DNA from: a virus
DNA: 64,000 bases
Direction: 5' to 3' (one strand)
Virus record (IMG/VR): IMGVR_UViG_3300045988_176682
Made by a program: the position numbers and the translations under genes
Part shown: positions 5,346-64,000 of the stretch, one piece after another
Layout of the letters: each line of letters begins with the position of its first letter
Position numbering within the stretch: the first letter of the stretch is position 1
Notes under the pieces: generated by a model
The model's input: only the letters and a program-made list of their open reading frames with translations
Database searches by the model: none
Told to the model about the DNA's origin: nothing

Positions 5346-6653
5346 TTACTCCCAATAAATTATAGTGACAGAAGTAGATTCTCCACCACCGCCAATATCT
5401 CCGGCTACTTCATTTAACACGTCAGAAGTAATAACTTTATTACCTCCGGTCTTATTTTTTACCTCTTCCGCAGTGGCAAGCTTAACGACACCCTTAATAT
5501 TGGTGCCGGCATCCGTAACATTAGCGGAAGCCTCATTTATTTTGATTATAACGTCTTGTCCGAGTTTAGCCATAACAACCGAAGAATCTTGCAACATTTC
5601 GGAAGATACCTTATTAACTCCAAGAAACTTTCCGGATAATATGGAAGATAATTTGGATTCGTCTATTGCCCCAGCAACGATTTTATCTGCGGTAACAGCT
5701 CCGTCGGCAATTTTATCCGTCGTAACATTTTTATCCATAATCTTCGCTGTGGTGACGGCACTGTTAATAATTTTGGTATTGGTTACCGAATCCGTCGCCA
5801 GTTTAGACTCCGTTACCGAGCCGTCTTTCAGTTCCATACTCCCCACGGTTCCGGCAGCAGGAGCTTTTAACTGGCCTTTATAAACAGTAATGATTTGAAC
5901 TTTTCCGGTAACCGGAGAATTTAAAATAATATTTCTTCCTGAAACCGTATATTCATCAGTCTGTAATATTTTGCCGGCGACGTTAATTTGAACGACTCGG
6001 GGAGAAGCTATCTCTGCCGGGAACACGAAAGTTGTCTGGTTATCAGCTGTATAACTTGCTTCAAGGGGCATTAAGTCGTATTCTAAAACAGTAGCCGTTT
6101 CTTGAATAAGAATAGGCTCACCGTAAGCCGGAGCCTCATTAAAAACAATCTTATCCCCCGTACTGTTTAATTCATAAGTACTAGGAGATTGTCTAACCCC
6201 ACTAAAGTAAACTTGAACAGTCTCTTTATGAGAAGTCGTCTTTTGTAAATCGTACTCGGTTTTAACGCCGTCAGAAACATATTCTTTACTTTCCGGAGGA
6301 AGAGTAACCGAATTAGGAATTTCCTTATTGGACAGAAAATTTAGGGCGCTTTCAACAGTCTTGGCTCCGGAAGGGAACTCTCCGGTAGGAGTAAAAATAA
6401 CTTCGGAAGCGTTAATAGTATCAAACGGACACCACCAAACAGGTTGGTCTAATTTTCCCAATCCGGTAAAAATATACCACTTCTGCTCGTCTTCCCGAAA
6501 ACACGGAGTACCAACATCATCCTCGGTAACGTCAGGGAACTCGGTTGCAGCAAACTGTTTCTTTACAGAGGCATCTCTCTGTAATAATTTCATCCAGGAC
6601 TGAGAAACAAGCTCTGAGCCTTCTATATTGGGAAAAAGATTTGGGTTAGCCAT
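5346..6653 (-). CDS. Tail fibre protein with short tandem peptide repeats
   Basis: Repeated xxVTxxKIxDxAV motifs (TDSVTNTKI, NSAVTTAKI, DKNVTTDKI, DGAVTADKI) typical of fibre shafts. Confidence 0.6.
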   Translation of the reverse strand: MANPNLFPNIEGSELVSQSWMKLLQRDASVKKQFAATEFPDVTEDDVGTPCFREDEQKWYIFTGLGKLDQPVWWCPFDTINASEVIFTPTGEFPSGAKTVESALNFLSNKEIPNSVTLPPESKEYVSDGVKTEYDLQKTTSHKETVQVYFSGVRQSPSTYELNSTGDKIVFNEAPAYGEPILIQETATVLEYDLMPLEASYTADNQTTFVFPAEIASPRVVQINVAGKILQTDEYTVSGRNIILNSPVTGKVQIITVYKGQLKAPAAGTVGSMELKDGSVTESKLATDSVTNTKIINSAVTTAKIMDKNVTTDKIADGAVTADKIVAGAIDESKLSSILSGKFLGVNKVSSEMLQDSSVVMAKLGQDVIIKINEASANVTDAGTNIKGVVKLATAEEVKNKTGGNKVITSDVLNEVAGDIGGGGESTSVTIIYWE

Positions 6654-51072: not shown

Positions 51073-51280
51073 CGTTTTTATACCTTTTAAAGAGGTAGGA
51101 AGTTCTTTAATTATTCTTATTGATGTAAATAAGATTTCTTATATCAAAGAAGTTTCTTCGGATTCTAAGAAAAAAATAATTCTTGAAATACTTCTTGATA
51201 ATGGAACCTTAGTACTTGTTGATGAGACTCTTAATTCGATAGTTAATAAAATGAAGAGAATGAGGTTATTTAATGTTTAA
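51065..51280 (+). CDS. Hypothetical protein
   Basis: 71-aa ORF. Confidence 0.4.
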   Translation: MNNVFIPFKEVGSSLIILIDVNKISYIKEVSSDSKKKIILEILLDNGTLVLVDETLNSIVNKMKRMRLFNV

Positions 51281-51604
51281 TATAAATAATGATTTTTTAC
51301 TTTATGATTTCGAGCCGAAAAAGCTTGGATTTAGATTAAGGGATTTTTTACGGAAAAAATTTTGGGCCCTCTGTCGCACTGAACTTCTATGTTGTTATAA
51401 GAGAAGATAATTTTAATTATTGGGAAATTATCTTTTTATATCAGAAAAATAAAAAGGCTCCGGAACATTTTAAACGTTCAAGTATTCAGAAAAATCTAAC
51501 GTTAAAATCGGTTATTAAGCTCTCTGTATTTATAGATACCAAAACCAAAATTAAAGACCTTTTCCCTATTTTAGATTCTTTGTGCATTACTCTTAAAAAT
51601 ATGA

Positions 51605-52651: not shown

Positions 52652-53449
52652 ATGGTTTTAATTTATGATGTTAATAACTGGATAAGAGTTAAACTGTCAA
52701 CCGACGGAGACCAGTTAACCATTAACAATTTCTGGTCTGAGGTTTTATACAACTCTTCTAAAGGAGAGGTTCAAATTTTTGTCTCTGATGGTTTTAATTC
52801 GAGAAAAAAGAGAAAAGAAATCTATCCAGAGTATAAAGCAAAAAGAAAGCCTGCCGATGCCTCTATTTATGATGGTATCAATTTCTTTAAGAACCTTTTG
52901 CGTCATGCTCCAAAAAATGTTTTTTATGTAGAAGTCCCGGAAATGGAAGCAGATGATATTATAGCTCATCTGGTAAGATACCGAAATAATTACTACATTG
53001 GAAAAGATATTCATATTATTTCAACCGATAAAGATTTAACCCAGCTTTTAGTTTATCCCGGAGTAACTACTCTGGCTACTCCTCCGGTAGAACCTAGATT
53101 TGTTAGGCTTTATAAAACTTTAGTTGGGGATAATTCAGACAATATTCCGGGAGTGCCGGGAATAGGGAAGTCTTCTTGGGAGAATATCCCGGAAGAAGTA
53201 AAAAAAGAACTTAATATGATGTTGGCCTCCGGCGGGATGTTGACCGAACATTTGGCAGATGAATTAGAAAAATGTTTCAAGCCAAAGCAACTGGAAAATT
53301 TTTATGAAGCTTATTATAATGGTAGTCTGCACATGTTCTTTAAGATTGTAGATTTTATAGATTATCCATTTAATCCGTCAATATTGAAGACAGGAGACGG
53401 AGACTTAAACTTTGTTAACAAGCAACTGAATGAGTTATTTATATTATGA
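52652..53449 (+). CDS. 5'-3' exonuclease / flap endonuclease (FEN, Pol I N-terminal-like)
   Basis: YPEYKAKRK motif, acidic clusters and H3TH GVPGIGKSSWENI. Start at the internal ATG with RBS AGGAG. Confidence 0.7.
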   Translation: MVLIYDVNNWIRVKLSTDGDQLTINNFWSEVLYNSSKGEVQIFVSDGFNSRKKRKEIYPEYKAKRKPADASIYDGINFFKNLLRHAPKNVFYVEVPEMEADDIIAHLVRYRNNYYIGKDIHIISTDKDLTQLLVYPGVTTLATPPVEPRFVRLYKTLVGDNSDNIPGVPGIGKSSWENIPEEVKKELNMMLASGGMLTEHLADELEKCFKPKQLENFYEAYYNGSLHMFFKIVDFIDYPFNPSILKTGDGDLNFVNKQLNELFIL

Positions 53450-55074
53450 GAAACAATGCTTGGCTTAGTTCTGGAGGAGATGAAGCGAGTGATGAAGTAA
53501 TCACTCCCAGATACGTTGTGGAACCTATTGTCAAATATCTTAAGGCTAAAAATTTTAAGGTTGTTTGGTGTCCGTTTGATACGGTAGTGTCCCAATATGT
53601 TCGCGTTCTTTATAAGGAAGGGTTTGATGTCAGGTTTGGACACCGAGACATAGGGCTTGACTTTTTCAAATATGAATGTCCGGAAGCAGATGTCATTGTT
53701 TCAAATCCGCCGTTCAGTTGTTATAGCGATGATACAGAGGTATTTACTAAAAGAGGATGGATTAGATTTCCGAATATATTACCAACTGATGAGATTTTAT
53801 CCGTAAACAATAAAAAAGAAATTAGTTGGGATAAAATTTCGAGAGTTATAAAAAAAGAGGTTAATGAGGATTTATATCATTTTAAAAATAAAAACATGGA
53901 TTTATTAGTTACCTCTGACCACAGGATGTTTGCCTACAATAAATATTCTAATGAGTTATGTATTGGTAAAGATGGGGATTTATTAAGAGCTTCCGAAATT
54001 GGAAGTAAACACTATTTTCCTAAAAATGGATATACTTGGAAAGGAGAGATTAACAACGATTATTTAGTTCTCCCACATACAAAAAATCCCCCTAGGAGTA
54101 AAGTTAGCTTTTATCCTGAACTAAAGATACCTCTAATTGATTGGCTTCCTTTTTTCGGATTATGGTTGGCTGATGGATTCGTTTCTACATATAAAGGAAC
54201 CGGACATGAATATACTGTGGGGATAAAACAAGGAGAATCTAGATGGAGAGAGGTAGAGAATATCTTAAATAAGTTACCTTTTAAATATTCTAAATATATA
54301 AATAAAATATACCCCAGCGATAGGGAAAGAAAAGCTGACTATGCTATATATCAAAAACAATTATGGGATTATATGAACCAATTTGGTAAATCTCAAAATA
54401 AATTTATTCCTTCTTGGATAAAAAATCTTCCTGTGAGGTATTTAAAGCTTCTTATTTATGGCTATACTTTAGGAGATAGTTTTAGACATAAAGGAATAAA
54501 TTCAATAACTACTTCTATTCATTATGGGTCAGTTTCTAAACAGTTGCTAGAAGATATTCAAGAGATATTATTAAAATTAGGAAATATAACTAATATTTCT
54601 CACCAGATTTTAAATAATGGTAATGATTATTATCGCTTAATCTTGAATAAAGATAGTTGCAGTAACAGAGCTATGTATATACGTAAAAATCCTCAAAATA
54701 AGGAACCCTATAATGGGTTAGTATATTGTTTAACTCTAAAAGAGAATAGTATTTTTTTAGTGAGAAGAAACAATAAAATAATATTTTGCGGTAATTGTAA
54801 AGACCAAGTATTGGAAAGACTTTATAAATTAGATAAACCCTTTATGGTTTTATTTCCTGTTCAAGTATTACAGGGAAAGAAAAGAACCAAGTTGTTTATG
54901 AAATATGGGTTGGAGTATCTTGGATTTGATTCCCGTCCTTGTTTTTATACCAAAAATGACTTATCGTCTATAAAAACGGGAAATCATTTTGCCAGCGGAT
55001 ATTATTGCCGGAATGTTCTTCCGGAGAAATTAATTTTTGAAGAATTAAAATTAATACAGGAGCCTTTTATATGA
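53446..55074 (+). CDS. Small phage Dam-like N6-adenine methyltransferase interrupted by an intein (extein about 186 aa)
   Basis: N-extein ...ITPRYVVEPIV...ADVIVSNPPFS. C-extein CKDQVLERLY...FMVLFPVQ.... The intein lies between them. Confidence 0.55.
   Translation: MRNNAWLSSGGDEASDEVITPRYVVEPIVKYLKAKNFKVVWCPFDTVVSQYVRVLYKEGFDVRFGHRDIGLDFFKYECPEADVIVSNPPFSCYSDDTEVFTKRGWIRFPNILPTDEILSVNNKKEISWDKISRVIKKEVNEDLYHFKNKNMDLLVTSDHRMFAYNKYSNELCIGKDGDLLRASEIGSKHYFPKNGYTWKGEINNDYLVLPHTKNPPRSKVSFYPELKIPLIDWLPFFGLWLADGFVSTYKGTGHEYTVGIKQGESRWREVENILNKLPFKYSKYINKIYPSDRERKADYAIYQKQLWDYMNQFGKSQNKFIPSWIKNLPVRYLKLLIYGYTLGDSFRHKGINSITTSIHYGSVSKQLLEDIQEILLKLGNITNISHQILNNGNDYYRLILNKDSCSNRAMYIRKNPQNKEPYNGLVYCLTLKENSIFLVRRNNKIIFCGNCKDQVLERLYKLDKPFMVLFPVQVLQGKKRTKLFMKYGLEYLGFDSRPCFYTKNDLSSIKTGNHFASGYYCRNVLPEKLIFEELKLIQEPFI
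53719..54795 (+). mobile_element. Intein (359 aa) with LAGLIDADG homing endonuclease domain
   Basis: Block A CYSDDTEVFTKRGW. Block B TSDH. LAGLIDADG motifs GLWLADGF and LIYGYTLGDSF. Blocks F/G VYCLTLKENSIFLV...IIFCGN followed by +1 Cys. Confidence 0.75.
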
Positions 55075-58424: not shown

Positions 58425-61136
58425 ATGCAAACTCTACTTCCTTCTGGCCCTGTTAAATCACAGTACACCGGAGACGGTACTAAAACCGTATTCGAGTTTA
58501 ATGTAGATATTACGGACAATTCTGTTATCCGAGTCTATTTGAACAACGTCGAAAGTTCTTCCGGATGGACTTACAGTGAAGAAGGAAAGTCTGTTACTTT
58601 CACCACCGCCCCTGCTGCCGGGACCAGTATCGTTATAATGCGATACGCCCCGGCAGCTTATACTGAAAGCATTACCGACAAAGGTATAATTTCCCCGGAA
58701 ACTTTAGATAATATGGCTGTCGAGCTGACGGCTCAGATTCAGACTCTGGAAGAGAAACTGTCTCGGGCTCCGGTATTTCCTGTCGATACCGACAGAACCG
58801 GAGAAGAGATATATAATGACTTCAAACAAATGGAAAGTTCCACGGTTTCTGCCGCGGCAGAAAGCACCGCTGCGGTACAAGATGTTAAGGAATTAAGGGA
58901 TGAATCTCTTAATAGCCTTAATACCGCTGTTGAGACCGCCAAACAAACTATCGGAAGTTATACTAACAACATGGTCGGCACCGTTGAAGACGCTACTGCC
59001 GGCTATATTAACCAAGCCAAAACTTGGGCTACCGGAGAGATTGATGAGGTAGCCGAAATCCAACCGGGAGAACGGTCATCTCGAGGTTATGCTGATGTTT
59101 CTGCGGCTTATGCCAGTACTCCGGAAGATGTTCCGATTGAGGACAGCGATATATTGGCCTTGGAAATATTTAAAGGAGATAAGGGTGACCCAGGAAATGA
59201 CGGTCTCCCTGGAGGAGGCTGGGAACTTTTTGACCATAAGTCTTCTGACCACCTCATTAACAACTATGGCTGGGTTCGTTCTAATCTTCAATGGTGTTAT
59301 GGCTCTATGTATCAGAGCGGTTATAATCACCTTATAGAGACCTCTGATGCGATTGCTTATACTAAAAAATATTATCAAGTTAATAACGGGTCTGTTAAGT
59401 ATTTAATTAATTATACTAAGACCCAGTTACAGGCTTTAGTAGATGATATAAGAGTATCTGAAAAAGAGAAAGTAGTTGCCTTATATACTTATCAGAATAA
59501 CTCGGGTCCTCTTCCGGTAGTTTATCAATATAATAAAGCAAGAGATATTCTTAATGATGCCAATTTTACATGGCCTAACGGAAGCACAGAAACTTTTACC
59601 AGAAGTACAAAATATTCCGAAATAAGCTATCTGGACCGGTACAAGGACGGGTATAATTTTACCAATCAAAAGGCTATGATAAAAAGGAACGGTTGGACAA
59701 GGTTTGGTACTACCAGTATCATAACCTTACCGATAGGGGTACCACAAGCAACCGGTACTAATGATAACTGGACTTTCTTTACCCATTTCAAAACCGGGTC
59801 TAATATTAGTGCCAGACAGGTTATCTTAAATATGCAATATAACGGAACCGCAGATTATGGGCTTATTTTAGATATTTATTCCTCAAAAATTAACATATAT
59901 GTTTCAAGCGACGGAACTTCATGGGATGTTATCAGTAACGTATCAGGTACCACTACTTTAACAATTAATACTGAATATTACCTGAAATTAGAAAGATATT
60001 ATGTAGCCAGGGGTAATGCCGGCTATCGGGTTTACTTGTCTCGGGATGGGGTTACTTGGTCTACTGAGATAAATCAAGTAAAAGATGCTGGTATCTTGGC
60101 CGGTAATAAGCCCGGTACTGTTGTTATTGGTAATAAGACCTCAGATATGGCTAGATATTTCAGAGGATATATTGATTTAAGCGAGAGCAGGTTTGAACAT
60201 AAACTTCCCCAATATAACTGGGAACCCTATCATTGGGTGGATATTAATTATTACCGAAATTCCGAGGGAAGAAAAATTTGCTCATCCGGACAAGAGGATA
60301 ATCTTCGTAAAGTTATCCAATTAAGCGGACAGGCATGGTATTATATTCTCGACCGAAGTAATGAGAGATTTAAACTCCCTTATTCCGAAAACTTCGAACG
60401 GTTTGGTACTAAAAATATCGGAAATTACCAGGAAGATATGTCTCAGGATTTTGCTGTATTTTGGGAAGGTTCAGATGATAATTATACTAGGTATCCTGAT
60501 ATGATAAACCTTTCCGGAAATATTATTTTCCCGGAAAGGAATTATGCCGGTATAGATGAATTTGGACCTTATACCAGTAATGAGGCTACCACTTGGGACC
60601 GTCTCGAAGGCAGGATGTCTAATAAGTATAATGCCGGAGACCAGGTATCTCCTCGAGCAACTTTATTTTATCTCTATTTCTATCTTGGAGAAGTTGCTGC
60701 TTCTTCGGCCAGTGTTGACCTGAACGGATTAAGTGAAACTGTTGCTGATAAAATGGATAATGATTTCGGGAACGCAACCATAGGGTTCGACCCGGTAATT
60801 GATTATTATCCTAAGACAGATGCCGAGAAAACAGCTGAATCCAATGCCGGAACTTACAGATGGTGGAGAAAATACAGGAGTGGTTGGATTGAACAGGGAG
60901 GATTTATTGATACTGTATCAGAAAACTCTACGGCTACGATTGAGTTTTTAAAAAATTTCAATAATAAAAAATACTTTGTCTCTTTATTGGAAGTAAAAAA
61001 CAAAGATACTTCAAACAACGGCTCAACTAACGCGAACGCTATTTCTCAACAAGATACATACCGTATGGTTATTATTACCTATTCTTGGGACAATGGTCGT
61101 TTATGGGAAGCAAAAGGATGGGGAGCTGATGAATAA
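58425..61136 (+). CDS. Tail fibre-like protein: T7 gp17-type N-terminal domain, collagen-like segment, LamG/ConA-like domain
   Basis: N-terminal QYTGDGTKTVFEF...VYLNNV...VTF...IVIMR. GDKGDPGNDGLPGGG. YFRGYIDLSE. Confidence 0.55.
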   Translation: MQTLLPSGPVKSQYTGDGTKTVFEFNVDITDNSVIRVYLNNVESSSGWTYSEEGKSVTFTTAPAAGTSIVIMRYAPAAYTESITDKGIISPETLDNMAVELTAQIQTLEEKLSRAPVFPVDTDRTGEEIYNDFKQMESSTVSAAAESTAAVQDVKELRDESLNSLNTAVETAKQTIGSYTNNMVGTVEDATAGYINQAKTWATGEIDEVAEIQPGERSSRGYADVSAAYASTPEDVPIEDSDILALEIFKGDKGDPGNDGLPGGGWELFDHKSSDHLINNYGWVRSNLQWCYGSMYQSGYNHLIETSDAIAYTKKYYQVNNGSVKYLINYTKTQLQALVDDIRVSEKEKVVALYTYQNNSGPLPVVYQYNKARDILNDANFTWPNGSTETFTRSTKYSEISYLDRYKDGYNFTNQKAMIKRNGWTRFGTTSIITLPIGVPQATGTNDNWTFFTHFKTGSNISARQVILNMQYNGTADYGLILDIYSSKINIYVSSDGTSWDVISNVSGTTTLTINTEYYLKLERYYVARGNAGYRVYLSRDGVTWSTEINQVKDAGILAGNKPGTVVIGNKTSDMARYFRGYIDLSESRFEHKLPQYNWEPYHWVDINYYRNSEGRKICSSGQEDNLRKVIQLSGQAWYYILDRSNERFKLPYSENFERFGTKNIGNYQEDMSQDFAVFWEGSDDNYTRYPDMINLSGNIIFPERNYAGIDEFGPYTSNEATTWDRLEGRMSNKYNAGDQVSPRATLFYLYFYLGEVAASSASVDLNGLSETVADKMDNDFGNATIGFDPVIDYYPKTDAEKTAESNAGTYRWWRKYRSGWIEQGGFIDTVSENSTATIEFLKNFNNKKYFVSLLEVKNKDTSNNGSTNANAISQQDTYRMVIITYSWDNGRLWEAKGWGADE

Positions 61137-61768
61137 TGACAGAAGAAATTAGATACAGTGCACTTCACTATGCTGCGAAATCAAAAAGTTCCGCAGATGC
61201 CGCAGCCGCGTCGGCATCTCATTGCGACCAGGTTGCCGCTGACTTCGATGTTAATGCAGCTCAAAAAACTTCAGATTTTGATGCAAACGCGGCTGCCAAG
61301 ACAACAACTTTTAACAATAATGCACAAACCAAGACAAATGAATATAATGCTAACCACAATGATAAGTTAGCCATTATTCAAGGTAAAGTGACCGAGTCCC
61401 AAACTTGGGCAACCCGTTCCGAAAATGCTGCCCATACCACTTTAAGAGATGTTGTCCCTCTTGGAAGCCTCGCTGCGGACAGTACCACTACTTTGGCTGA
61501 AAATAATGTGTATTCTGCTACTATCCCTGCCGCAGGAAATTATAGTTTTGCTCTCAGCATTACCAATACTTCTCCGGCTTATCATGTGCAGATAAAATTA
61601 TTCCTGACAGTTGTCCCGTCAGCGCCGATTATCTCTTGGGGATGTGACAAGTTTTTTAATGGAGCAGAACCCGACATTGAGGCCGGTAACTATGTTATTT
61701 ACTGGGATTACGATAATCTTACCCAGCAATGGGTTTGTGGCGGTATGCCCTATTCTGTAGCCGATTAG
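61136..61768 (+). CDS. Hypothetical protein with Ala/Asn-rich repeats
   Basis: 210-aa ORF, ATGA-coupled to the fibre gene. Confidence 0.5.
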   Translation: MTEEIRYSALHYAAKSKSSADAAAASASHCDQVAADFDVNAAQKTSDFDANAAAKTTTFNNNAQTKTNEYNANHNDKLAIIQGKVTESQTWATRSENAAHTTLRDVVPLGSLAADSTTTLAENNVYSATIPAAGNYSFALSITNTSPAYHVQIKLFLTVVPSAPIISWGCDKFFNGAEPDIEAGNYVIYWDYDNLTQQWVCGGMPYSVAD

Positions 61769-61778
61769 GAGAAAGAAA

Positions 61779-62552
61779 GTGGCTGATGAAAAACTTATAC
61801 GATACAGTCATGACCTTTTAGGAGGAAAAGTTCCGTTCGAGCCGGTTACTTTTGGTGCTGCAGCTTTTTTTCAGGAATGGGAAGTCCCTCCTGGGCACCG
61901 AAAGATAAGAGTAGACATCGTGGGAGGTAAAGGTTACGGTGGAGAATCGGGAAGTTCAGCTCCCTCAGGAGGCTATGGCGGGCGAGTAACATGTGTCTTG
62001 GAAGTAAAGCCAAGACAAAAACTTTATATTTGGGCCGGAAGAGTTCCAACATCCTTAACTGAGGTTTATGATAACTCAGCCCATATTAATACATCAACAT
62101 CTAATTCTAAAGACACTATTTTAGTTATTGCCGGTGGGGGGGGCTCGGTAGGGTCCGGAAATAATGTTACTCCAGGCGGGGCTGGCGGAGGAACTACCGG
62201 AGCCGCAGGTAAAGATGCAGGTTGTTCAGGCGGGGGAAAAGGTGGAACACAAACCGCTGGTGGGGCTGGCGGACAATATATTACTTGGACTTCTCAACAA
62301 GTTGCCGCCGGTTCGGCAGGAACATTTTTAAAGGGAGGAGCTCCCGGAAGTAATCGTGGAGTTGGCGGGGCTGGCGGCGCTGGCTGGTATGGTGGCGGTG
62401 GCGGTGCCGGTGGGTTTACTAAATCAGCCGGAACGTATGGCGGCGGAGGCGGAGGAGGTTCTTCTTATACTCATCCTACACTTTGCAGTGAAGTAACCCA
62501 CTATCAGGGATATAGAAGTTATAGTGGATATGTAAAAATTTCGATGTATTAG
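61779..62552 (+). CDS. Glycine-rich protein (fibre/host-range module paralogue 1); contains a G8 tract
   Basis: Long GGxGGxG runs. N- and C-termini paralogous to 62559..63962. G8 at 62136-62143. Confidence 0.55.
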   Translation: MADEKLIRYSHDLLGGKVPFEPVTFGAAAFFQEWEVPPGHRKIRVDIVGGKGYGGESGSSAPSGGYGGRVTCVLEVKPRQKLYIWAGRVPTSLTEVYDNSAHINTSTSNSKDTILVIAGGGGSVGSGNNVTPGGAGGGTTGAAGKDAGCSGGGKGGTQTAGGAGGQYITWTSQQVAAGSAGTFLKGGAPGSNRGVGGAGGAGWYGGGGGAGGFTKSAGTYGGGGGGGSSYTHPTLCSEVTHYQGYRSYSGYVKISMY

Positions 62553-62558
62553 GAGAAA

Positions 62559-63962
62559 ATGATGACCGAAGAAACAATTCTCGATAAAGCGAAGGGGGGG
62601 GGTGACTGGGACGAACCTCTAATTTATTATAGTTATGAATTATTAGCAGGCAGTTATAGTACTGACCCCATCACTTTCCGACCGGCAAGCAACAATGTTC
62701 CGGTATTATTTAAAGTCCCAGGAGCGTGCAAATATCTAAAGGTAGATTGTGTAGGCGCTACCGGAGGAGGAAATAGCGGCGGCGCTGGTGGACGGGTACA
62801 GTGTATATTAGATGTAAGAGAGAATAAAAGATTATATATCTTTGCCGGGAAATCTCATGGAACTTCTTATGATTCCAGAGTCTATGATGCTTCTCATATT
62901 AGTACATCTTACAGCTATAATGAAGGAAACACGTCGGCTCTTAACCAGAGGTTAGTGGTAGCCGGAGCGGGAGGAAATCGTTATCAAGGTTATGGTGCCG
63001 GTGCCGGAGGAGGTCTGACCGGTGGTACCGCAGCCGGAGATATTATCCATCCCGGTTATGGTGGAACACAAACAGCTGGCGGAGCCCCCTCACATAATAT
63101 TCGAGGGAGTATTCGAGGCACGCCTAATTTCGGAAATGCCGGAGTATTTGGATATGGCGGCTCGGGACCTTATCCGGGCGGGGCTGGCTGGTATGGCGGA
63201 GGTTCGGGAGGTACTTGTTATGTATCTAAAGCTGGTACACAATGGGCCGGCGCTGGTGGAGGTTCCTCTTATACAAAATCAGGCTTATGTAAGGAGGTAG
63301 TCCATACGCAAGGATATAACAAGAACGGTAACGGATGGGTTACGATACAATGTTTGAGGGGGGGGGTAACTATTCCTAATTTCGAGGTTGTTGGTTCTCC
63401 GACGATTGATGAAAATTATAATGTTAGTGGTTTTAGTTTAAATGATTATGTAAAAATAGGCCTAAATAAATCTGTAACTACTAAGAATCTTGAGATACAA
63501 CTTAAGATTACTACACCTAAAACATGGACTATATCTGGTTATGAAGATTTTATAGCATATGCTGGAGATAATTATAAAAAAGGTTTAATAGATATAAATA
63601 TTTATTCAGCGAATAACCCCTATGTTTCAGCAGGTTTTCATACAGATACAGATACTTTTTCTATTAAGGTATTAAAAGTAATAGAATTAAATAAAACTTA
63701 TTGGTTTAAAATTACATATGATGGAAAAATTTTTAGGGGATATAATTCTTTAGATGGTAAAATTTGGAATTTATATGAAGAAAAAATTTATAGTGAAAAC
63801 GAAGAAAAGGATATATCTATCGAAAAACAAACTTATTATGTAGGACTTTGGAATCCAGATAGAGGCACTGATAGAAGTGTTTTCCCTGGAACAATACATT
63901 TATCAGAATCTTATATTAAAGCAAATGGAGAAATTTTATGGGCGAGTACAACAAAGACATAG
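62559..63962 (+). CDS. Glycine-rich protein with C-terminal LamG-like domain (paralogue 2); contains two G9 tracts
   Basis: G9 at 62594-62602 (codon 12-14) and 63358-63366. AT-rich C-terminal domain resembles the LamG-like part of the 903-aa protein. Confidence 0.55.
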   Translation: MMTEETILDKAKGGGDWDEPLIYYSYELLAGSYSTDPITFRPASNNVPVLFKVPGACKYLKVDCVGATGGGNSGGAGGRVQCILDVRENKRLYIFAGKSHGTSYDSRVYDASHISTSYSYNEGNTSALNQRLVVAGAGGNRYQGYGAGAGGGLTGGTAAGDIIHPGYGGTQTAGGAPSHNIRGSIRGTPNFGNAGVFGYGGSGPYPGGAGWYGGGSGGTCYVSKAGTQWAGAGGGSSYTKSGLCKEVVHTQGYNKNGNGWVTIQCLRGGVTIPNFEVVGSPTIDENYNVSGFSLNDYVKIGLNKSVTTKNLEIQLKITTPKTWTISGYEDFIAYAGDNYKKGLIDINIYSANNPYVSAGFHTDTDTFSIKVLKVIELNKTYWFKITYDGKIFRGYNSLDGKIWNLYEEKIYSENEEKDISIEKQTYYVGLWNPDRGTDRSVFPGTIHLSESYIKANGEILWASTTKT

Positions 63963-64000
63963 AAGTAGATTATGTAAAACTTGAAGATGGGATGCTTCAA

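Follow-up and report, generated by a model that had tools for sequence, protein, structure and literature searches.

We consider it likely that two poly-G tracts in a single tail-fibre (receptor-binding) gene of an uncultivated human-gut siphovirus of about 73 kb are slippage-prone contingency loci. The gene lies in a stretch of viral DNA of 64,000 nucleotides (nt) from IMG/VR record IMGVR_UViG_3300045988_176682, referred to below as the window. Two adjacent open reading frames (ORFs) encode paralogous glycine-rich proteins there, gene 1 with 257 amino acids (aa) and gene 2 with 467 aa, and they hold three long G runs: a G8 run in gene 1 (T1), a G9 run near the start of gene 2 (T2) and a second G9 run immediately before the C-terminal LamG-like domain of gene 2 (T3; Table 1). 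An earlier note on this DNA had reported these runs, at coordinates that proved exact, and had proposed that all three are phase-variation switches, the early tract of gene 2 turning the gene ON or OFF and the later one toggling its C-terminal domain. Comparison of related genomes, which the note had suggested as a check, bears this out for T2 and T3, whose lengths range from 7 to 10 and from 7 to 9 in near-identical contigs in which other homopolymers are constant, but not for T1, whose length was never seen to vary.

Tract length in related contigs

An exact look-up of the 210-aa protein encoded next to gene 1, which carries no bias on tract length, returned ten contigs from different samples (L001-L010) that are 97-100% identical to the window, and a pattern scan with the flanks of T3 and a free spacer of 6-13 bases returned two more (L033 and L034). 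These 12 contigs form a set picked without regard to tract length. Five further contigs, reached via particular protein products, are a biased sample, and add cases of T2 = G10 and T3 = G7. In the order L001-L010, L033, L034, the lengths of T2 are 9, 7, 9, 9, 9, 9, 8, 9, 10, 9, 9 and 9 (G9 in nine contigs; G7, G8 and G10 in one each), and those of T3 are 9, 7, 8, 8, 8, 9, 8, 9, not covered, 8, 9 and 9 (G9 in five contigs, G8 in five, G7 in one, and one not covered). Seven A7 or T7 runs and T1 have constant length in the same contigs. Over approximately 12 kb in nine non-identical contigs, the single other frame-changing insertion or deletion is a T6/T5 difference at 51344-51349, where T6 is replaced by T5 in five related contigs and a small ORF starting at 51273 goes from 45 to 118 aa. 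This difference tracks the phylogeny of single-nucleotide polymorphisms (SNPs), and as such looks like one event rather than a hypervariable site.

The tracts behave differently from such a site on the SNP tree, which was built on 4.2 kb. L001 and L009 differ by one SNP, yet have T2 lengths of 9 and 10; L006 and L003 differ by three SNPs, yet have T3 lengths of 9 and 8; and L008 and L002, 14 SNPs apart, have T2/T3 lengths of 9/9 and 7/7. As nearest neighbours on the tree differ at the tracts, at least four independent changes have occurred in each tract. Length polymorphism is thereby restricted to T2 and T3, and it alters the reading frame of gene 2. We also note that contig ERZ27250523:k119_28615 (L009 and L012) carries T2 = G10 and otherwise has a single SNP relative to the window, and that its sequence stops approximately 195 nt before T3. 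Heterogeneity at T3, or in the C-terminal cassette described below, could have broken the assembly at this position.

Consequences for the reading frame and the product census

In-silico translation gives T2 two kinds of outcome. With G9 or G12 the full frame is read (ON). With G7 or G10 the TGA adjoining the tract enters the frame and the product is 14-15 aa long, and with G8 or G11 the product is 20-21 aa long. The out-of-frame states are nulls, because no in-frame start follows ahead of the conserved domain. The non-G9 lengths that occur among the contigs (7, 8 and 10) thus all end translation at 14-21 codons, in agreement with the ON/OFF behaviour ascribed to this tract in the earlier note. 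T3 acts on architecture, likewise in the manner that had been anticipated. With G9, the 467-aa product has the glycine-rich domain fused to the LamG-like domain. With G8, the adjoining TAA is in frame and a 269-aa product ends in ...QCLRGG directly after the glycine-rich domain, a length typical of stand-alone members of the family (256-285 aa). With G7 or G10, the product is 272-273 aa long and ends in ...NYS. Only at G8 do the two ATG codons upstream of T3 read into the C-terminal domain, opening an ORF of 203 or 208 aa (MFEGGVTIPN...), and gene callers report products of both lengths. No Shine-Dalgarno sequence is evident upstream of these two ATG codons, and for this reason we treat separate expression of the LamG-like domain at G8 as possible and its use as uncertain.

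The same discrete states are found among database proteins. Clusters with gene 2 products hold 132 sequences, 64 of which are listed, and the figures that follow are counts among those listed. Full-length products (462-473 aa) number 23; 14 end in ...LRGG or ...LRRG (268-269 aa, the G8 state) and four end in ...LRGGNYS (271-272 aa, the G7 or G10 state). Another four are N-terminally truncated calls of 335 aa, in which an out-of-frame T2 has shifted the called start into the domain. About 14 are calls of the C-terminal domain on its own (199-208 aa), and the remainder are fragments. In two proteins, P0154 (KGEGDW) and P0136 (KGGEGDW), T2 is interrupted and the frame would be locked, as read from the protein sequence. 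In a third, P0157 (MTEEKFSIKRRGGGDW), what looks like a 1-nt deletion upstream is apparently compensated by an extra G in T2. The C-terminal ORF is moreover still open in six of the seven contigs in which T3 sets it out of frame. The apparent compensation in P0157, the locked frames of P0154 and P0136 and the open out-of-frame ORF may be taken as signs of selection on expression.

Composition, chance and the third tract

T1, T2 and T3 are the sole runs of seven or more G or C in the 64-kb window, which has a GC content of 38.4%, and no further run of this length is present in the 7.8 kb by which L001 extends past the window. Set against dinucleotide shuffles, the number of G8 runs as such stands out only slightly: five G8 matches were observed window-wide where 1.67 are expected, and 8 of 100 shuffles reach five (p ~0.08). 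We therefore rejected the count as sufficient evidence in its own right. Coding sequence gives a sharper comparison. When the codons of both proteins were re-drawn synonymously, at least one G8 run arose in approximately 25% of draws, three runs of at least G8 in approximately 0.2%, and two G9 runs in 0.1-0.2%. Among glycine codons GGG is the least used, at 13% in 47 other ORFs, and four of the seven GGG codons of gene 2 fall within T2 and T3.

T1 alone is unremarkable in this comparison, because at least one G8 run comes up in about a quarter of the re-draws. In the 12-contig set it is G8 in all ten contigs in which it is unbroken, is interrupted in L005, and lies beyond the stored stretch of L034. 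Across all loci it is G8 in 13, interrupted in L005 (GGGGGTGG) and L017 (GGAGGAGG), and was not located in L014, whose first gene is 250 aa long. Gene 1 products are correspondingly uniform, with 257 aa in 14 of the 15 listed, across more than 50 contigs. T1 encodes the conserved (V)AGGGG motif of the family. With a constant length, interruptions in two lineages, a conserved motif to encode and a frequency that fits chance, T1 was rejected as a third switch, and the proposal of a switch in the 257-aa gene is not supported.

Protein structure and exchange of the C-terminal domain

T2 and T3 both occupy low-confidence segments of the AlphaFold model of gene 2, outside the domain cores, and stop codons adjoin both. 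The model has a predicted local distance difference test score (pLDDT) of 80.7. The leader (aa 1-31), which holds T2, is disordered, the glycine-rich domain is well predicted, and the linker falls below a pLDDT of 50 at aa 269-272, directly after the residues encoded by T3. The C-terminal beta-sandwich has pLDDT values mostly of 80-90, except in a loop at aa 326-353. Foldseek searches of this domain against the PDB matched neurexin LNS domains with template-modelling (TM) scores of 0.56-0.69 and a probability of 1.0 (best match 2r1d_I, TM 0.69), with further matches to laminin LG domains, pentraxin and legume lectins, and in BFVD it matched ConA/LamG viral proteins. By sequence, the domain has no Pfam match at E <= 1 except one spurious weak match, and no membership of Pfam LamG. 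The LamG-like character that had been proposed for it is thus supported by fold, though not by Pfam sequence.

The glycine-rich part matches the TG domain of LTK (7nx1) in Foldseek with E = 2.9e-4 and 20% identity, at a TM score of only 0.40, and its top BFVD matches are viral proteins auto-named 'receptor protein-tyrosine kinase'. By sequence, no PDB chain was matched either by gene 2 itself or by a profile of 50 sequences. Pfam ALK_LTK_GRD (PF12810) scores 30.8 bits against gene 1 and 34.3 bits against gene 2, both above the gathering cut-off of 24.5, and Gly_rich_2 scores 23.1, slightly under its cut-off of 24.3. The two proteins are 35% identical to one another (E = 7e-20), which upholds the description of gene 1 and gene 2 as glycine-rich paralogues.

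Behind a near-identical N-terminal part, the C-terminal domain is found in four alleles, A, A', B and C, with 38-75% aa identity between them. Their divergence starts 0-24 codons past T3, and the poly-G tract therefore marks a recombination boundary. The gene just downstream (L001:12803-13243) co-varies, encoding 146 aa with alleles A and A' and 138 aa with B and C. On the evidence of these alleles, the C-terminal domain is exchanged as a cassette among relatives. The combination of two tracts in one gene, with the mid-gene tract exactly at a domain and recombination boundary, is a distinguishing trait of this locus.

Genes and surroundings of the locus

The fibre cluster runs from the 903-aa tail-fibre gene through the 210-aa ORF and gene 1 to gene 2, downstream of the DNA polymerase gene, and the TAG stop of gene 1 overlaps the ribosome-binding site of gene 2 (AGGAG). 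Shine-Dalgarno-like motifs are found upstream of 27 of 42 ORFs. This side-fibre cluster (58425-63962, + strand) lies approximately 29 kb from the main structural module (1000-29629, - strand), on the opposite strand. The main module contains terminase, portal, head, tape-measure and J-like tip genes. The phage, an uncultivated siphovirus, has a large terminase, portal, major head protein, 1551-aa tape-measure protein and lambda-J-like tip protein, and a family-A DNA polymerase is also among its genes. A 542-aa ORF (53446-55074), which lies between the genes for the 5'-3' exonuclease and the DNA polymerase, has weak precomputed Pfam matches to intein splicing and LAGLIDADG homing-endonuclease domains.

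Table 1. Positions of the poly-G tracts, neighbouring genes and associated features in the window
Feature	Position	Strand	Description
903-aa tail-fibre protein	58425..61136	+	Weakly matches the N-terminal domain of the T7 tail fibre (Pfam Phage_T7_tail, below threshold); PHROGs tail and tail-fibre families
210-aa ORF	61136-61768		Between the 903-aa tail-fibre gene and gene 1
Gene 1 (257-aa ORF)	61779..62552	+	Stand-alone glycine-rich-domain paralogue; ORF list, Pfam
T1 (G8)	62136-62143	+	In gene 1; GGT GGG GGG GGC, encoding conserved core motif AGGGG
Gene 2 (467-aa ORF from first ATG, 466 aa from second ATG)	62559..63962	+	Carries T2 and T3
Gene 2 layout			Disordered N-terminal leader, aa 1-31; glycine-rich domain, ~aa 35-268; short linker; LamG-like C-terminal domain
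T2 (G9)	62594-62602	+	Leader of gene 2; AAG GGG GGG GGT, K12-G15 (third base of codon 12 to codon 15)
TGA adjoining T2	62603..62605	+	In frame when T2 is G10 or G7
Second ATG upstream of T3	63335		Shares the frame of the C-terminal domain only at T3 = G8
ATG upstream of T3	63350..63352	+	Separated from T3 by 5 nt; shares the frame of the C-terminal domain only at T3 = G8
T3 (G9)	63358-63366	+	Linker of gene 2, between glycine-rich and LamG-like domains; AGG GGG GGG G, R267-G268-G269
C-terminal beta-sandwich	63366..63959	+	LamG/LNS (concanavalin-A-like) fold; Foldseek, BFVD, allele comparison
TAA adjoining T3	63367..63369	+	Stops the reading frame at T3 = G8; gene calls of 268 aa in L003, L004, L005 and L010

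The large terminase of the phage shares only about 37% identity with its closest counterparts among phage records, some of them from phages of Achromobacter, Caulobacter and Acinetobacter about 77-85 kb in size. A megablast search with positions 61000-64000 gave no nucleotide match to the fibre locus among 50,697 phage records, and tblastn gave no protein match to gene 2 there. IMG/VR was scanned with both genes and yielded no close relative. A search for the exact 467-aa sequence also gave no match, because gene callers begin at the second ATG. The lambda-J-like tip protein was scanned against a genome collection with the aim of finding the host, and gave no match there. L001 is a 73.4-kb ENA contig identical to the window and extending 7.8 kb beyond it. 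The label "human gut metagenome" comes from the record name of one related contig and from both contigs returned by the scan of public metagenomes.

A receptor-binding role for gene 1 and gene 2 is well grounded in their position and fold. Both come after the tail-fibre gene in the cluster order given above, the glycine-rich domain has a Foldseek match to the TG domain of LTK, and in other phages homologues of gene 2 are found behind Baseplate_J and Mu gp48, in the position of a tail-fibre gene. It is likely on this basis that the two proteins are receptor-binding parts of the virion.

Proposed mechanism and alternative explanations

Contingency loci are recognised by a homopolymer or short repeat within an ORF or promoter, by a repeat length that varies among very close relatives far beyond the rest of the genome, by a product that is switched by frameshift, and by switching that is reversible, frequent in a single population and linked to a phenotype. 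The first three of these features are found at T2 and T3. We propose that each G run gains or loses a base during phage DNA replication far more often than any other site, such that slippage in replication would be the cause of the length changes. T2 would gate translation of the whole of gene 2, with G9 as the ON state and a 14-21-aa peptide at other lengths. T3 would then set the architecture of what is made: the fused protein of 467 aa at G9, the glycine-rich domain alone (269 aa) at G8, where the LamG-like domain might be made separately from an ATG brought into frame, and, at G7 or G10, a 272-273-aa protein that has the glycine-rich domain only, the LamG-like domain being left untranslated. 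Gene 1 would serve throughout as an always-intact paralogue. Populations would as such hold a heritable, probably reversible mix of virions with differing distal fibre equipment. Reversibility is suggested by the scatter of states over the SNP tree and by the intact out-of-frame ORFs, and the position of the genes and the fold of their products suggest that a mixture of lengths may alter adsorption or host range.

Several points weigh against this interpretation. In L010, in which T3 is G8, a 3-nt insertion (L010:9990-10020) makes an in-frame TAA in the out-of-frame C-terminal ORF, and at least one lineage may therefore be losing the C-terminal domain for good rather than switching it. The absence of interruptions from T2 and T3 in the 15 distinct contigs that were read as nucleotide sequence is not statistically distinguishable from neutrality, as divergence among them is low. 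All contigs are assembly consensus sequences, in which within-population variation, switching rate and reversibility are not directly visible. The receptor-binding role, for its part, rests on gene position and fold.

The nonsense insertion and the non-significant lack of interruptions would both be expected if the G9 runs were a non-adaptive hotspot, a by-product of Gly-Gly-Gly coding in a dispensable gene whose frameshifted forms are broken and en route to loss. Glycine-rich genes do form G runs by chance, as the quarter of codon re-draws with at least one G8 run demonstrates, and gene 1 could supply the essential function. However, two G9 runs are found in a far smaller share of the same re-draws, and they are placed precisely in the leader and the linker, with stops adjoining. 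The C-terminal ORF is intact in nearly all contigs that have it out of frame, and its four diverged alleles are all open. The apparently compensated frameshift of P0157 is likewise difficult to reconcile with decay, as is the fact that homologues with 30-40% identity and a GC content of 38-57% have a tract at the same 5' position, again in both ON and OFF states. We consider a purely non-adaptive origin unlikely.

A second alternative concerns T3 only. C-terminal domains are added to tail or capsid proteins by recoding in some phages, and at G8 ribosomes slipping by -1 on G GGG GGG beside the TAA, or polymerase stutter, could give a fixed ratio of short to long product, with the DNA length differences being secondary. 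After a -1 slip, pairing on the G run would again be perfect and translation would continue into the C-terminal domain, G8 with its adjoining TAA is as frequent as G9 among the unbiased contigs (five of each), and the C-terminal ORF is conserved in G8 genomes. Nevertheless, no convincing stimulatory RNA structure lies downstream of T3 (z = -1.59, not significant), and the arrangement is not fixed, in that genomes with G7 and with in-frame G9 exist besides those with G8. Variation at the level of DNA suffices for the data, and recoding would in any case be compatible with T3 as a contingency locus; as a replacement for it, we regard recoding as rather improbable.

Artefacts of sequencing or assembly at long G homopolymers are a third alternative, and the earlier note had named sequencing artefacts as something that would refute its proposal. 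Long homopolymers are error-prone on several platforms, and all of the evidence comes from assembled consensus contigs. An artefact is nevertheless very unlikely: in these contigs neither the seven A7/T7 runs nor the G8 run of T1 changes in length, and identical states turn up in many contigs from independent samples and sources (at least two contig naming styles, k119_... and NODE_...cov..., plus Logan assemblies, suggest different pipelines). Two-base differences (G7) also occur, dozens of database products show the same discrete states beside constant gene 1 products, and interrupted and compensated variants exist.

Comparison with known systems

In bacteria such as Campylobacter, Neisseria and Haemophilus, phase variation by poly-G or poly-C tracts results from slipped-strand mispairing, which near the 5' end of a gene gives ON/OFF switching, and mid-gene tracts can yield truncated but functional proteins. 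The locus described here differs in being viral and replicated by a phage-encoded polymerase, and in that switching would act on the composition of the virion rather than on a cell surface.

The closest parallel is in the Fletchervirus phages of Campylobacter, whose receptor-binding genes contain hypermutable tracts of 7-11 G (Sorensen et al., Cell Rep 2021;35:109214, in the summary given by bioRxiv 10.1101/2025.10.21.683753). The likeness, as far as that summary describes the system, extends to G runs of 7-11 in phage receptor-binding genes, here with an inferred role, and to length changes that lead to phase-variable expression and a mixed population. By contrast, the present phage, which has a tape-measure protein and a lambda-J-like tip, is a siphovirus, whereas Fletchervirus phages are Campylobacter myoviruses. 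The phage collection holds no nucleotide match to its fibre locus and no protein match to gene 2, and the distance of its nearest large terminases likewise places it outside that group. The fold also differs, being a glycine-rich domain with LamG, and two tracts lie in one gene, one of them toggling a domain rather than the whole protein. The evidence here is comparative, not experimental.

Contingency loci have been described in phages T2, T4 and others, where homopolymers in ORFs frameshift reversibly by polymerase slippage, and have been read as bet-hedging (bioRxiv 10.1101/2025.10.21.683753; Gomez, Barrick and Waters). In that survey, repeats of six or more are under-represented in the infection-protein category that includes tail fibres, at approximately 0.77 of expectation (bioRxiv 10.1101/2025.10.21.683753). 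In this genome, by comparison, the only long G runs are concentrated in the fibre genes, with both variable tracts in gene 2. Tropism switching is also achieved by the diversity-generating retroelement of Bordetella phage BPP-1 and by the invertible fibre segments of Mu and P1 (PMC10579305). The proposed system is similar to these in programming variation of the distal receptor-binding part of the tail fibre within a population, and differs in using neither a reverse transcriptase nor an invertase, but a simple repeat with discrete frameshift states. In cyanophage Pam3, gp24 has a TNF-like plus glycine-rich architecture that forms the receptor-recognising part of the tail fibre and resembles ALK and the gp38 adhesin of phage S16 (PMC9608196). 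Gene 2 probably shares with Pam3 gp24, Salmonella phage S16 gp38 and ALK/LTK a domain of similar length (about 260 aa) based on a glycine-rich lattice, and it shares with the phage proteins its place in a fibre cluster; the LamG domain and the poly-G tracts are not described in those proteins.

Occurrence in other phages and significance

Similar tracts are present at some distance from this phage. Homologous genes were compared at 12 distant loci, and at four of these a glycine-rich fibre gene has a G run of at least eight at its start. The tract of Mu-like prophages from gut Alphaproteobacteria genomes occupies a fixed codon position, between ...INRRGG and VLQIYKG..., in the second of two glycine-rich fibre genes, and is found both as G9 (ON; L028:2490-2498 and L032:1501-1580) and as G10 (OFF; L027:2444-2453). 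Among 15 listed products of this prophage gene, seven are full length (258 aa) and eight are N-terminally shortened, most of them starting just past the tract. A scan of IMG/VR for the leader of this prophage family gave no match. An IMG/VR phage does carry a G8 run (L021:4851-4858) at codons 15-17 (KIYMGGAVKKIYKG) of the second of two tandem glycine-rich paralogues, a position that matches the tract of the Alphaproteobacteria prophages. In a further IMG/VR phage (L018), two small glycine-rich genes lie downstream of two repeated leader cassettes of approximately 125 nt (5501-5622 and 6268-6390), each of which has a G9 run in a short ORF. A tenth G would carry this leader ORF across a hairpin (GCCTCG-GAAG-CGAGGC) that holds a GAGG ribosome-binding site, as far as a TAA adjoining the ATG of the gene, an arrangement that suggests a poly-G switch acting through translational coupling.

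It is possible, and we put it forward tentatively, that poly-G contingency tracts are a general feature of tail-fibre genes with glycine-rich domains across unrelated gut phages and prophages, either repeatedly evolved or long conserved. If this were so, mutational bet-hedging on receptor binding would be common in the gut virome and not a peculiarity of Campylobacter phages, and gene 2 would add to it a multi-state design of two tracts, one gating the gene and the other making a lectin-like domain fused, separate or absent. A recent review of gut phages refers, where it treats the subject, to phase-variable receptor-binding genes in phages as 'an exceptional case', known from Campylobacter phages. 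What we describe is likely to be the same trick in an unrelated, widespread and uncultivated human-gut siphovirus, with evidence from natural populations in dozens of metagenomes, and it suggests that fibre genes with glycine-rich domains are a recurrent home of such switches. As gene callers split or truncate such genes, fibre annotations and host-range predictions based on a single assembly can be wrong. Phages with such tracts would be intrinsically heterogeneous, which matters for the modelling of phage-host interactions and for phage therapy.

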